The notes beneath the pieces were generated by a model that was not told where the DNA came from, did no database searches, and saw only the letters and a list, made by a program, of their open reading frames with translations. Below, one piece after another: positions 5,489 to 11,178 of a DNA stretch of 34,760 bases. The stretch comes from a virus (lineage: Duplodnaviria > Heunggongvirae > Uroviricota > Caudoviricetes): positions 1 through 34,760 of IMG/VR virus record IMGVR_UViG_2563366879_000001; one strand, given 5' to 3'. The stretch's first letter is position 1, and every line of letters starts with the position of its first letter. Made by a program: the position numbers and the translations under genes.

Positions 5489-5742
5489 AGCTAAAGTATT
5501 AGCTTAAAAATAAAGTATACCTAGCGAATATAATCTAGGACTAGTTGTAACGCCCGAAATGATTGATTGCGTGAGCAACAAAATTTTTCTTCCATTGTTG
5601 TGAAATCATTTAGCCATAAAGTTTATGCAGAGATTTTATTTTATTTTATTTTTGAGTTGATTTTTTTGTAACGAGCTGTATATTTCGCGCCTCTTGTCAT
5701 ACCAGTTATTTTTTTCATTATATTCATAACGTTGATTGAACT

Positions 5743-8700
5743 ATGACCACTGTGAATAAAAAGTTAAAAAAAACTGCATCTGGCGCGATTACATGGTCGG
5801 TAATTGTTACCCAGATATTATCTCCAGTTTCTCTTTCTTTGATCCCAGCAAACAGTTTTGCATCATCTGGTAATAAAGATGTTACGCAAACTTATGCCAG
5901 CGATGAGCATGCAAATAAAGTGGCCTCATTTGCAGCAAGTGCAGGTCAGAGCCTGGCGAATAATAATGCAAGTAGTTTTGCTGTAAATACTTTATCAACT
6001 CAGGCGACAAAAGAGGTCGTCGACTGGTTGCAACAATATGGCAATGCGCGCATCAAGCTTAATGTCGATGATTCTTTTTCCTTGAAGGATTCATCATTCG
6101 ACTTTTTATATCCATGGCTGGATACTCAGGATTATGTGCTATTCAGTCAGACATCACTACATCGTACTGATGACCGAAATCAGACCAATATTGGTTTGGG
6201 GATTCGTCATTTCACTCCTGATAACGCAATGTTGGGTGCGAATGTTTTCTATGATTACGATTTAAGTCGCAGTCACTCTCGTGCAGGTTTTGGGGTTGAG
6301 TACTGGAGAGATTATTTCAGGCTTGGTGTAAATACCTATTTTGGTTTGTCTGACTGGAAGAACAGTCGGGATATTGATGATTATCTGGAAAGACCCGCAA
6401 ATGGCTGGGATTTTTCTGCTGAAGGATGGCTACCTGCTTATCCGCAATTAGGGGCATCCATTCAGTTTGAAAAATATTATGGTAAAAATGTCGGGTTATT
6501 TGGAAGCGATAATCTGCAGGAAAACCCTTACGCAGTTACTGGGGGAATTTCTTATACACCAGTTCCTCTGATTAAGTTTTCTGCACAGCATAAGCAAGGA
6601 CAGAGCAACGTTCACGATACAACCTTTGGTGTTGAGTTTAATTATCGCCCGGGCGTTTCCCTTGCTGAACAGCTTAGCAGTGACAATGTTGCTGTTATGC
6701 GAGAAGTCCAGAACCGGCGTTATGATTTTGTTGAACGAAATAACAACATTGTTCTGGAGTACAAGAAGAAGCATGCACTGAAAATCAGTTTGCCAGAGTC
6801 TGTTCAGGGGGAGGGGGAATCAATCATCCCTGTAACACTGACAATCAACAATGCTAGTGGTGGTATCAAGTCTGTACAGTGGAATGATAGTGCATTCACT
6901 GCGGCTGGCGGCAAGATCAGTGGAAATGGCACATCATGGCAGATCACTTTACCGGCTTATAAAAGCGAAGGTGTAAATTCGTGGAATGTTGGAGCCACAG
7001 TACAGGATAACAGAGGCAACGTTTCCAACTATGCCGTGATGAATATTAGCGTTACTGATAGTGGTGTCTCGACGGCTGATTCGTCTTTTACACTGGATGG
7101 AGATTCGTCGCCGACGATCTCTGCTGATAGCCAATCCACTTATCCAATAGTATTAAGCCTGAAAGATAGTAACGGTAAGGCATTAACCGGACTGGCTGAT
7201 GACATTGAAATGTCAGTGGAATTTACAGCAGATAGCAATAGTGCTCGACAGCGTGAAACGGTAACTGCTCCGTCATTAGGCGCGGTAGAGGAAATCTCTG
7301 CTGGGGTATATCGCTCTGTTCTGACTGCTGGTTCGCAGGCTGGTACGGTACGTGTAACTGCAAAAGTTCAGGGAAAAACCTTTACTCTGAATATTAAGCA
7401 GGCAGCCATTACTGATAGTGATGTATCGACAGCTGATTCGTCTTTTACACTGGATGGAGATTCGTCGCCGACGATCTCTGTTGATAGCCAATCCACTTAT
7501 CCGATAGTATTAAGCCTGAAAGATAGTAACGGTAAGGCATTAACCGGACTGGCTGATGACATTGAAATGTCAGTGGAATTTACAGCAGATAGCAATAGTG
7601 CTCGACAGCGTGAAACGGTAACTGCTCCGTCATTAGGCGCGGTAGAGGAAATCTCTGCTGGGGTATATCACTCTGTTCTGACTGCTGGTTCGCAGGCTGG
7701 TACGGTACGTGTAACTGCAAAAGTTCAGGGAAAAACATTTACTCTCAGTATTAAGCAAACAGCAGCAACAGAACCTGATTCTGAGGTCAGTGCTGTTTTA
7801 ACCGCTGCACCAGCAGAACAGGTAGTTGGTTACAATATCAATCTACAACTGGCAGTGAAGGATTCACAAGGAAATGCAATCACTGGTGATAACACTCTGA
7901 GCTTTTATGCTCTTAACCAGGCAGAAGGAGTCGAGTTTGGGACTGTAACGGAAAAAGACGGTGTCTATAGCGCGACAGTAACTTCAAAACGAGCTGGTAA
8001 GATTACTATCGGTGTTAAATCTGATAGTCATGATTTCTCAGGTGTTAAGAAAGAAATCACCTTTATTGAGGACCGGCAGCAGGTTACATTCTCTCAGTTT
8101 GAAGCCAGCCAAAATAATGCATTGGCTGATGGAAAACAGAGAAATATGGTAACTGTAAGCCTTGCGGACCGTTTCGGCAATGTTGTTCCTGGTTATGCTG
8201 TCACATTGTCTTTACCAGCAGGGATAACTCAAGTTGGTGGTGAACATGCTGTTTCAACTGACGAAAATGGTAATGCTATTTTTGCGTTAATAAGCTCCAC
8301 TCCGGGGTCTTACGTGATTACAGCTCATGCTGGTTCTCAGATGTCTACTGAGTTAACAGTGACCTTTGCATCAAATATGACCGGAGCTTCACTGTCACTG
8401 ACGCCTGAAAGCAGTAGTTTAATTTCCAATATTCCTGCTAATGGTAAGGATGCAGCGGTATTAGATGTGCAGCTGACAAATACGAATGCGTCGGTCAATG
8501 GGCAAAAGATTCAGCTCATCACCTCATCTGAAGGATTATCTATACCAACAAATATCGTGACTGATTCAACAGGGCATGTTTCTGTTCCGCTTACAACGGT
8601 GAAAGCTGGTGAGTACACGGTGACTGCACGGGTGACTGACGGTTCCCATAGCGTGGAATCTGGCAGCGTTAAGTTAACTTTTGTGCCCGATGTTGCTTCT

Positions 8701-9690: not shown

Positions 9691-10731
9691 CAGGTTAGCG
9701 TTTGGGTTTTGTTGTTGGGGAGCTGTTTTTATAGGCGCTCCCAGGTTTTTAGTAAACCACTCAACGACTCTGTTTATAATAATTGGCTGATACCATGTCT
9801 TATCGCCATGCTCGGCCCCTTCTACCAGCACGTACTCAGCGTTATCGCCGTTCTTCTTCAACATCCTGAATAGTTTGGCGCTTTGCTCAGGTGAAACCAG
9901 AGTGTCTTTGCTACCATGCATAATAAGAAATGGGGGTTTTACTCCTTTCATATGTCCGATTGGACTGGCGTTTAGCGCTTTTTCTTTTGACGCTGTTATG
10001 GGGGCTCCCGCAAAACTTCTGAATGCAGGGCCATTGATCATTAAGGCTTCGGTTACGGCAGGAGATCGATGAACCTCCTGCACAGATTCAGGGAACCCCT
10101 CGCCAATATTCAACAAGTCAGAAATCCCATAAAGTGTGGCAACTGCCTGAACATCTGCTGATTGCTGAAGAAAGTCACCTTTATCAAAGGTTTTGTCACC
10201 ATTTGTAGTTCCCATCATCTGGGCAAGCCATCCACCGGCAGAGTCACCCAGAACTCCGATTCTTTGAGGATCAATCCCATAATCGCTGGCATGTTCTCTC
10301 AAGTAACGTATTGCAGCTTTCCCATCCTCAACTGGTGCTGGAAATGTATCAGGAATTGTTCTGTATTCTACAGCGGCCACAACAAAACCAGCTTCAGCCA
10401 GAGCCATTCTCATTTCAATAAATTTGTCATGTTCAGAAGACATGAATCCGCCGCCGGGATAATAAATAATGGCTGGTTTTAAATCATTTGTTCGTGGGAC
10501 AAGAACTGACATGTGAAGCTGTCTGACAGAACGAGTTCCTTTTATCTGGGAATAAACAACATCACCAATGAGATCGACCTGGTTTCTGGTCGGTGAAACA
10601 CTAATGATATCTGCACCCGGGGTGTAACCAGGAAGATTAGTCTGGACAGGTGTTGCACAACTCCCGACCGACATGGCCATTGACATACCATACAATAGTG
10701 TTGCAGATGATAATATCTTGTTAATTTTCAT
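9688..10731 (-). CDS. Lipoprotein alpha/beta-hydrolase (esterase/lipase, hormone-sensitive-lipase-like fold)
   Basis: 347 aa. Signal peptide with lipobox (..SMAMSVGSC). Oxyanion-hole motif YYPGGGF and nucleophile-elbow motif GDSAGG, as in the Abhydrolase_3 family. Confidence 0.8.
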   Translation of the reverse strand: MKINKILSSATLLYGMSMAMSVGSCATPVQTNLPGYTPGADIISVSPTRNQVDLIGDVVYSQIKGTRSVRQLHMSVLVPRTNDLKPAIIYYPGGGFMSSEHDKFIEMRMALAEAGFVVAAVEYRTIPDTFPAPVEDGKAAIRYLREHASDYGIDPQRIGVLGDSAGGWLAQMMGTTNGDKTFDKGDFLQQSADVQAVATLYGISDLLNIGEGFPESVQEVHRSPAVTEALMINGPAFRSFAGAPITASKEKALNASPIGHMKGVKPPFLIMHGSKDTLVSPEQSAKLFRMLKKNGDNAEYVLVEGAEHGDKTWYQPIIINRVVEWFTKNLGAPIKTAPQQQNPNANL

Positions 10732-11178
10732 GTTTTACATGCCTTGACTTATCGGATGAAATTCTCTTACTGAATTTAACGGCAGTTTAATAGCCGTACA
10801 ACTCGTGGTAGCTAGGGAAATATCCCAGTCGTGGTTAAGGTTGTACTTGACGGCTATTATTTCAACAATGCTTAAAGTGAGAGCTTAAGGTTATGCGTAT
10901 GTTTTACAGTCCGAGTAGATTCTGACCAATAGCTTCTTTGTATGATTCTGTCAGAAATAAATCTTGGCTTGCATGAAGTTTGAGACCTTATCTTGTTTGA
11001 TTATGAATAATCAATTCGCCATAATTGTATCACCGGAGCCTGAACAACTTCGGTGACTTCTGCGCTAAACGGGGACGTTTATGCGCACACACAATCCAAA
11101 CTCTCTTCTCCCTTCACAGATGCAGAAATGCACCTGCGATTCTCTGCATCCAACGTTTGACCTCTGCGGAGGTGAAGC

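Follow-up and report, generated by a model that had tools for sequence, protein, structure and literature searches.

Layout of the locus

We examined a 34,760-nucleotide stretch of DNA, positions 1 to 34,760 of the IMG/VR virus record IMGVR_UViG_2563366879_000001, which is called the window here and which holds a lambda-like Escherichia coli prophage. This study concerns two genes lodged in that prophage between the replication gene P and the nin genes. The first, an adhesin gene, lies at 5743-9651 on the + strand and encodes 1302 amino acids. The second, a hydrolase gene, lies at 9688-10731 on the - strand and encodes 347 amino acids. Both open reading frames (ORFs) were found where an earlier, sequence-only reading of the window had placed them. 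They are transcribed toward each other, and their stop ends are separated by a 36-bp spacer that holds a GC hairpin. The left flank consists of lambda O (3894-4790) and, right after it, lambda P (4787-5488). The right flank begins with ybcN (11179-11634; PHROG phrog_72, E 4e-52), a NinB/Orf-like gene in the NinB/Orf position, beyond which lie ybcO, rusA, and Q. RefSeq annotates both cargo genes in full, with generic names.

The adhesin gene has a GC content of 43.8%, with 35.7% at third codon positions (GC3), and the hydrolase gene has 44.8% (GC3 37.9%), compared with a GC3 of 62% for P and 51.9% GC for the whole window. The adhesin leader, at 5489-5742, has 29.5% GC, and only 0.06% of 254-bp segments are as low. 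The GC minimum of the window (29.1%) starts at 5480 and overlaps this leader. The AT-rich island and strongly AT-rich upstream region that had been described from the letters alone were thus confirmed.

In E. coli chromosomes, the gene order O-P-adhesin-hydrolase-ybcN-ninE-ybcO-rusA-Q was met again at two attachment sites, tRNA-Thr/proA in strain Z1323HEC0475 and icd in isolate AF5. This order is shared by EC958 and JJ2434, both of sequence type 131 (ST131), and by 28 E. coli-type IMG/VR viral contigs. In E. coli, the two genes always have P on one side and ybcN on the other, within a run of phage genes, and they are absent from about 90% of complete genomes. They are therefore phage cargo in the variable P-ninB slot and not part of the core chromosome, as the earlier reading had proposed. 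The alternative, that they are chromosomal core or island genes abutting a shorter prophage, draws on Citrobacter and E. albertii, where the adhesin has its closest relatives outside E. coli and where these are chromosomal genes. The constant position between P and ybcN, the two integration sites, the presence of the adhesin in about 10% and of the hydrolase in about 12% of genomes, and the occurrence of the hydrolase in eight sequenced virion genomes exclude it for practical purposes, and we give it next to no probability.

Adhesin and hydrolase belong to separate cassettes

When the window was compared by blastn with the loci of the isolated phages 4A7 and Perceval, homology was found only at 3866-5478 and 9684-12584. 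The breakpoint, 9683/9684, falls exactly between the adhesin and the hydrolase genes. The gap at 5479-9683 indicates that the leader, the IAT (inverse autotransporter) gene that encodes the adhesin, and its own hairpin form one replaceable unit, an adhesin moron cassette on the + strand. Eight isolated phages in INPHARED have the hydrolase and carry ren-emrE-ybcK between P and the hydrolase gene in place of the adhesin. The reverse arrangement was seen in strain AST215, in which the adhesin cassette with its hairpin is followed directly by ybcN and there is no hydrolase. AST215 rejoins the window at about 11040-11052. Together with the blastn result, this delimits a hydrolase moron cassette on the - strand at 9684-11040 (right edge about 11040-11051), made up of the gene and about 310 bp upstream of it.

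Where the hydrolase is missing, the adhesin keeps the hairpin. In phage 4A7, another hairpin occupies the corresponding spot and abuts the same TTTTTACAGG, so each left-hand cassette brings its own terminator. AST215 and six IMG/VR loci (L034-L038 and L040) share a 92-94% adhesin allele and lack the hydrolase, and two loci (L032 and L046) combine an adhesin allele of the AST215 class with the hydrolase. The hydrolase was always found on the ybcN side, immediately left of the ybcN block, and the adhesin on the P side. A search for direct or inverted repeats flanking either cassette, of the kind that would indicate transposition, found none. Presence or absence among colinear phages, deviant base composition, and a terminator of its own are marks of a moron, and these were observed here.

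Among 5426 complete E. coli genomes, the N terminus and barrel of the adhesin were present in 558 (~10%), the full hydrolase in 671 (~12%), and an intact adhesin-hairpin-hydrolase junction in 438. In IMG/VR, 25 of the 42 assessable hydrolase loci had the adhesin before the hydrolase and the other 17 had ren-emrE(-ybcK). Seventeen of the 23 assessable adhesin loci had the hydrolase after the adhesin, and six had no hydrolase.

The sequence-only reading had taken the adhesin and a lipase to be one lysogenic-conversion module and had asked whether the two genes travel together. They often do not, since 17/42 hydrolase loci lack the adhesin and 6/23 adhesin loci lack the hydrolase, and that claim is not supported. 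A co-selected module could still be imagined in which the esterase conditions a surface or substrate for the adhesin, or in which the two form a transporter-cargo pair like ZirT/ZirS. In 438 of the 558 adhesin-positive genomes, the genes lie next to each other and share a hairpin, both are AT-rich, and IATs with co-encoded secreted partners exist (PMC4943183, PMC6714894). However, all four gene combinations occur, the breakpoint lies exactly between the genes, and each gene is tied to its own side of the slot. Also, the genes are convergent and thus do not form a single operon, the hydrolase is a predicted lipoprotein, unlike partners of the ZirS/ZirU type, and much of the co-occurrence comes from clonal sampling of ST131. 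We therefore regard a co-selected module as improbable. The frequent adjacency is best explained, in our inference, by linkage together with clonal over-sampling of ST131 rather than by functional coupling. A ZirT-like pair in particular was rejected because of gene orientation and independent assortment.

Two observations were made at the edges of the cassettes. Elements of the IS66 family (ISEc23, ISCro1) are inserted at the adhesin-hydrolase junction in several genomes. A 33-codon ORF at 11081-11182, just before ybcN and overlapping its start, marks where all cassette variants rejoin; in the relatives examined, its RefSeq annotation is a hypothetical protein of 102 nt.

Domain architecture of the FdeC-like adhesin

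The Pfam family IAT_beta (PF11924) matched adhesin residues 57-334 with E 4.9e-101, covering positions 3-279 of the 279-position model. Big_1 (E 1.9e-55, five stretches) and Invasin_D3 (E 2.3e-54, six stretches) were also matched, so that the IAT barrel, Big_1, and, in the hydrolase, Abhydrolase_3 were all recovered where the earlier reading had expected them. Against solved structures in the PDB, the barrel matched Yersinia invasin (4e1t, 1e-73) and intimin (4e1s, 8e-63), and the first Ig domain matched intimin D00 (6tqd, 9e-10). The protein can be mapped as a putative signal peptide at about residues 1-40, a beta-barrel at 57-341, and about nine Ig-like domains at 342-1302. The N terminus was judged by inspection only and shows a KKLKK n-region, a hydrophobic stretch, and ANSFA/SS. 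An N-terminal PF11924 barrel with a C-terminal Big/Ig-like passenger is the architecture of type Ve secretion. Pfam found no LysM, Intimin_C, or lectin domain in the adhesin. The earlier assignment to the intimin/invasin family is right as to the IAT barrel and Ig array and should be narrowed to FdeC-like, given that LysM and a lectin tip are missing. PHROGs assigned the adhesin to two families of unknown function.

The C-terminal tip domain (residues 1178-1302; 9274-9648, + strand) was studied with AlphaFold2 (AF2), Foldseek, and profile hidden Markov models (HMMs). The AF2 model of the last 125 residues, which was based on an alignment of four sequences only, gave an eight-stranded sandwich with a predicted local distance difference test score (pLDDT) of 78.3 and a predicted template-modeling score (pTM) of 0.72. 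The best Foldseek match of this model was intimin D00-D0 (6tqd, E 2.3e-4, TM 0.59), and other Ig folds came next. An HMM made in a non-circular way from the internal adhesin domains matched the tip with E 1e-5. The tip profile gave only a marginal match among PDB sequences, to an S-layer Ig domain (4uid, E 9.5e-4), and a homologue search with the C-terminal 220 residues found one partial protein only. An AF2 model made for the last two domains from one sequence alone had a pLDDT of 35.6 and was set aside. As modeled, the tip is an Ig-like beta-sandwich and not a C-type lectin.

Tandem Repeats Finder and a second repeat finder located a tandem duplication at 7052-7757 (+ strand), with a 357-bp unit that corresponds to one 119-residue Ig-like domain and copies that are 97% identical. 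The window has two copies of this domain, and one, three, or four were found elsewhere in E. coli. Adhesin proteins of 1302, 1421, and 1540 residues occur, with gene spans of 3552 bp (one-copy) and 4266 bp. The duplication splits BLAST matches to the adhesin into separate places and thereby distorts simple coverage counts.

Two allele classes of the adhesin differ by 0.185 synonymous (dS) and 0.029 nonsynonymous (dN) substitutions per site. The resulting dN/dS of 0.16 overall and 0.06 in the barrel indicates that the adhesin is under purifying selection. Hundreds of genomes have the 3.9-kb ORF in intact form, and it is unbroken even in defective prophages. In strain S9, the annotated adhesin coding sequence is cut to 2523 nt and has no barrel match.

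Relatives and origin of the adhesin

Over 1205 colinear residues, FdeC of strain NC101 and the adhesin are 34% identical at the protein level; for the barrel, the figure is 58%. In a low-stringency blastn search, fdeC was the only E. coli locus besides the prophage adhesin among the matches listed, with half of the barrel matched at about 66% nucleotide identity, and this was the match in most of the other genomes that gave one. The adhesin scored far below the NCBIfam cutoffs of the named families (score/cutoff): IatC 393/2400, SinH/IatB 317/999, YchO/IatA 272/508, Ilp 312/1125, YrIlm 305/750, Inv 287/710, and intimin_all 330/1400. Judged from its sequence, the adhesin is an FdeC-like paralogue, neither an FdeC orthologue nor an intimin or invasin in the strict sense.

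Closer relatives were found outside E. coli. An E. albertii protein is 80% identical over a partial N-terminal match at residues 1-237, where the contig ends. A Citrobacter protein of 1179 residues is 76% identical in the barrel and 45-68% in the passenger and is colinear to the C terminus with a one-repeat allele. Relatives from Providencia and Xenorhabdus are about 42% identical. The Citrobacter gene is chromosomal and lies beside pgaABC, in one case beside a P2-like integrase, and the E. albertii gene is chromosomal beside ABC permease and aldehyde dehydrogenase genes. Since the closest relatives outside E. coli are chromosomal and outside lambdoid contexts, the comparison suggests that a lambdoid phage captured a chromosomal adhesin gene. 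In Citrobacter sp. FP75 (L010, 1350-7174 and 7977-11534), the adhesin orthologue stands directly beside pgaABC-like genes for the biofilm polysaccharide poly-N-acetylglucosamine (PNAG), namely a PgaA barrel, a deacetylase, and a glycosyltransferase, an arrangement compatible with a biofilm role.

These orthologues also bear on the possibility that the cargo serves the phage, with the surface rod or the envelope esterase blocking competing phages (superinfection exclusion) or modifying a receptor. Prophage envelope lipoproteins that block receptors, such as Cor and Llp, are an established class. Related prophages carry the envelope morons Lom and Bor/Iss, and an esterase could de-acetylate a surface polysaccharide receptor. 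On the other side, neither cargo protein matched any PADLOC model, and the adhesin orthologues on Citrobacter and E. albertii chromosomes point to a role at the bacterial surface that is older than the capture by a phage. A phage-serving role seems to us a long shot.

The hydrolase is a predicted lipoprotein esterase

The hydrolase matched BD-FAE (PF20434), the feruloyl/acetyl-xylan esterase family, with E 1.5e-44 and 152.5 bits (Pfam cutoff 26.8), and Abhydrolase_3 with E 1.3e-22 and 81 bits (Pfam cutoff 25). PHROG phrog_3341, "esterase," was matched with 2.8e-129. Both motifs that the earlier reading had pointed out are present, YYPGGGF (GGGF at 93-96, oxyanion) and GDSAGG (G162-D-S164-A-G). 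The triad Ser164/Asp276/His308 and the GGGF align to PDB entry 6nkf (GDSSGG, D, H), with E 1e-36.

The lipoprotein signal also held up. Lipoboxes follow the PROSITE-type rule [LVI..][ASTG..][GAS]-C at the end of the signal peptide, and the hydrolase has SVGS-C25 in the context MKINKILSSATLLYGMSMAMSVGS-C25-ATP, which was checked by eye and predicts a lipoprotein. An exhaustive HMMER scan gave 507 cluster representatives of the hydrolase family at E <= 1e-30. The nearest full-length relative outside E. coli, from Sutterella, is 58% identical and has an ordinary signal peptide with no lipobox, suggesting that the lipid anchor, as far as signal peptides can tell, is specific to the phage version. 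A tandem two-domain form occurs in Desulfovibrionaceae. Copies in isolated phages are 97-98% identical to the hydrolase of the window (97.8% at the nucleotide level for the Perceval orthologue, PERCE_52).

The earlier label of esterase/lipase can be kept in its first half, on the strength of BD-FAE and the triad; lipase is not the best reading of the second. A true lipase or phospholipase, with lipids of the host or of bacteria as its substrates, would agree with the naming of 6nkf, the best solved relative (E 1e-36), as a lipase, and with weak matches to the hormone-sensitive lipase (HSL) family and the predicted membrane anchor. However, BD-FAE scores twice as high as Abhydrolase_3, and the solved relatives after 6nkf are a GH43-CE bifunctional enzyme and acetyl-xylan or carbohydrate esterases. 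In many remote relatives, moreover, the esterase domain is part of a long protein that has several domains. We consider a lipase fairly unlikely. The BD-FAE carbohydrate-esterase family is the better fit to the profile scores, and the protein is probably an autonomously expressed envelope esterase whose substrate would be short-acyl or acetylated.

Expression signals of the two cassettes

The leader of the adhesin (5489-5742, + strand) is a putative promoter region with two sigma-70-like sites, TTGATT-16-TATATT at 5657-5684 and TTGTCA-16-CATTAT at 5694-5721. An (ATTTT)4 tract at 5633-5652 lies just upstream of the -35-like TTGATT. This tract has four units in the window, three in EC958, and two in AST215, and it may modulate promoter spacing or curvature. 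The leader as a whole is conserved between the allele classes, and its last 71 bp before the adhesin ATG show one difference between the allele classes, compared with a coding dS of 0.18.

The hairpin at 9663-9683 in the spacer had been described as a shared bidirectional terminator. For the adhesin, it is a canonical intrinsic terminator, with -18.1 kcal/mol on the + strand and CUUUUU directly after it. For the hydrolase, it is weaker, with -16.7 kcal/mol on the - strand and an interrupted U-run, so the description fits only one of the two strands in full.

A 2014 study by Easton et al. is reported to have placed FdeC under the control of H-NS and temperature. By analogy, H-NS silencing of the very AT-rich adhesin locus is plausible.

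The earlier reading had taken the whole island to be probably H-NS-silenced; the esterase orthologue of phage Perceval, PERCE_52, is in fact transcribed in the lysogen. In RNA sequencing of strain LF82, its log2(fpkm+5), where fpkm is fragments per kilobase per million, was 4.1-4.4 in overnight LB (PMC9928086, tables S1 and S4). At 1 h it was 6.9-7.2 in bacteria alone (B1) and 7.0-7.3 in macrophages (MB1), and ninB, ninE, and ybcO were at the detection floor of 2.32 (PMC9928086). The overnight LB value is 3.8 times the prophage median, below the authors' moron cut-off of 5 times, and the log2 fold change of MB6 versus LB was 2.26 with q 2.7e-13 (PMC9928086).

State of the prophage

The earlier reading spoke of a prophage, and a lambda-like prophage it is, but the copy in the window is a defective E. 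coli remnant. Its left end, at 1-3893, is wrecked. The integrase is split into two ORFs at 1-492 and 588-1127 on the - strand. An element of the IS3 family, with transposase fragments at 1284-2132 and 3651-3857, is interrupted by the IS110-family element ISEc21 (transposase at 2456-3532) and replaces everything between xis and about codon 32 of O, which has lost its first ~95 nt. Compared with intact relatives, the immunity and recombination region is gone, including the recombination genes, N, cI, cro, and pR. With the immunity region, pR, and N lost, any expression of the cargo must come from promoters of its own. The lambda-family portal gene appears frameshifted, as overlapping ORFs at 19764-20585 (273 residues) and 20582-21364 (260 residues) in different frames cover positions 2-227 and 235-354 of Phage_portal_2. 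This could be further prophage decay or a sequencing error.

Such a wreck raises the possibility that the adhesin, too, is decaying and non-functional, as the passenger of a dead prophage. The split integrase, the IS3/ISEc21 insertion-deletion, the 5'-truncated O, and the frameshifted portal gene speak for it, as do IS66 insertions and truncations in some genomes and the silence that is typical of IAT genes in the laboratory (PMC6714894). However, the adhesin ORF stayed intact while nearby phage genes decayed, it is intact in hundreds of other genomes, its dN/dS is 0.16 overall and 0.06 in the barrel, and the promoter-proximal 71 bp are almost invariant. We thus give very little credence to a decaying passenger.

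Other features of these prophages were noted. The sister prophage at tRNA-Thr of Z1323HEC0475 (NZ_CP148326.1, 612000-640000) adjoins the vat autotransporter toxin island, and frameshifts in its integrase and tape-measure genes make it probably not inducible either. Another idea, that the adhesin makes the phage genome too large to package, was unsupported, as this sister prophage is only ~42-46 kb. A second variable AT-rich slot lies at 14296-16900 in the window, between the lysis genes and the terminase, where sister prophages carry rzpD, iss/bor, and a TonB fragment. Three of its ORFs, at 15151-15531 (-), 15722-16147 (+), and 16393-16785 (+), had no Pfam match, and the one at 15722-16147 gave one marginal PADLOC match to a DRT-associated transmembrane protein (E 0.0017). 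An Rfam scan of the whole window returned no match.

Proposed explanation and its meaning

We consider it quite likely that two independently acquired moron cassettes stand side by side in the P-ybcN/nin slot, one for an adhesin of FdeC architecture and one for a lipoprotein esterase. Judging from its family, the adhesin would reach the periplasm through its putative Sec signal peptide, and its N-terminal 12-stranded barrel would be inserted into the outer membrane by the beta-barrel assembly machinery (BAM) and the translocation and assembly module (TAM). Surface exposure and BAM-TAM insertion have been shown for FdeC and intimin (PMC4943183). Hairpin-mediated export of the C-terminal passenger, with its nine or so Ig-like domains, would then produce a rod tens of nanometers long, whose length would be set by the one to four copies of the 119-residue domain. 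This rod could attach to surfaces, host cells, or other bacteria and so contribute to biofilm. The adhesin is probably transcribed from its own promoter in the AT-rich leader, stops at its own terminator, and is probably repressed under laboratory conditions, as reported for FdeC.

The esterase would be anchored by Cys25, probably at the periplasmic face of the outer membrane, since residue +2 is Ala. Most likely it is not a true lipase and instead cleaves short acyl or acetyl esters off carbohydrates or small molecules, and it would have its own promoter and be expressed in the lysogen.

Several observations weigh against this explanation. The counts in the 5426 genomes record presence and not phylogenetically independent events, and ST131 is heavily over-sampled. 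No isolated plaque-forming phage in INPHARED carries the adhesin, so that transfer in virions can only be deduced from the two attachment sites and the mosaic prophages. The promoter scan as a whole was not above chance, with 11 sites against 11.8 expected from shuffled sequence. On the strand of the hydrolase, it detected no promoter-like site upstream of that gene, and the adhesin ATG is not preceded by a strong Shine-Dalgarno sequence. As for the esterase, its best solved relative, 6nkf, was deposited as a lipase, Lip_vut4, and the hydrolase reached no NCBIfam equivalog cutoff.

Envelope-protein phage morons and FdeC-like IATs are already known. In the searchable literature, we found no named or characterized prophage-borne IAT, nor any account of a lambdoid moron that encodes a type Ve adhesin. 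The 2016 survey of the IAT family does not contain the word "phage" (PMC4943183). The 2019 survey of IATs in E. coli included EC958 and JJ1886 and scored only fdeC, iatA, and iatB for both (PMC6714894). EC958 carries the prophage adhesin, which was not scored there as a separate gene. As the published survey does not list it separately, the adhesin could be missing from adhesin inventories and lists of vaccine antigens.

If it is expressed in vivo, the adhesin would be a mobile colonization factor of major extraintestinal lineages (ST131 EC958 and JJ2434, ST38, and avian strains). The P-ninB slot is a clean natural example of lambdoid phages swapping self-contained cassettes, each with its own terminator, and a chromosomal adhesin family of Citrobacter and E. 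albertii has apparently turned into phage cargo there. The esterase, found in virion-forming phages and transcribed in lysogens, is thus a tractable uncharacterized moron. The general understanding of phage morons and type V secretion is unchanged. Both cargo genes are common in clinical lineages such as ST131 and ordinary in kind.

A bolder proposal, which we consider possible but rather unlikely, is that the adhesin is a distinct, unnamed eighth IAT lineage of E. coli. Lambdoid phages would have taken it up from an enterobacterial chromosome and spread it to about 10% of E. coli, including pandemic ST131. It would act as a contingency locus in which rod length (one to four domain copies) and promoter geometry, (ATTTT)2-4, vary, and it would play a measurable part in colonization or biofilm of extraintestinal pathogenic E. 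coli or, alternatively, in phage exclusion.

Comparison with known systems

The closest counterpart of the adhesin in E. coli is FdeC/EaeH, which has the same IAT barrel and long Big/Ig array behind a signal peptide (a putative one in the prophage adhesin), lacks LysM and a lectin cap, and likely shares its mode of action. FdeC is an adhesin with 10 Big domains that depends on TAM, binds collagen, and promotes biofilm, and FdeC-like IATs are the commonest form of the family (PMC4943183). In contrast to FdeC, the prophage adhesin is only 34% identical overall, has a tip with no specific counterpart, lies in a prophage rather than at the conserved fdeC locus, and is present in about 10% of genomes, compared with most genomes for fdeC. 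One of its internal domains, moreover, is duplicated almost perfectly and varies in copy number.

Intimin (Eae) and Yersinia invasin have a homologous beta-barrel, repeats of the Invasin_D3 type, and a D00-like first Ig domain. The adhesin differs from them in lacking LysM and the C-type lectin-like receptor-binding end, and no binding to Tir or integrin can be deduced for it. It belongs to the E. coli IAT repertoire together with IatB/SinH, IatC (Air/EaeX), IatD, YeeJ, and IatA/YchO, but it falls below every curated cutoff for those IATs of Goh et al. 2019 that have one in NCBIfam. When over-expressed, IatB, IatC, and IatD cause biofilm, and they are silent or undetectable in wild-type cultures (PMC6714894). 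The Citrobacter and E. albertii orthologues belong to the same family as the adhesin and have the same domain order but are not in lambdoid prophages.

The hydrolase has the fold, the GGG(F), the GDSxG elbow, and the Asp/His positions in common with BD-FAE/HSL-like hydrolases, 6nkf Lip_vut4, PERCE_52, and the "esterase" of 4A7. Classical lambdoid morons resemble the two cassettes in being self-contained units of deviant composition, with a terminator and probably a promoter of their own, that encode envelope proteins and are dispensable for the phage. Sister prophages carry two of these, iss and lom. The cargo differs from lom, bor/iss, and the autotransporters Eib and Eaa of lambdoid prophages in its place, the P-ninB slot, and in its protein class.

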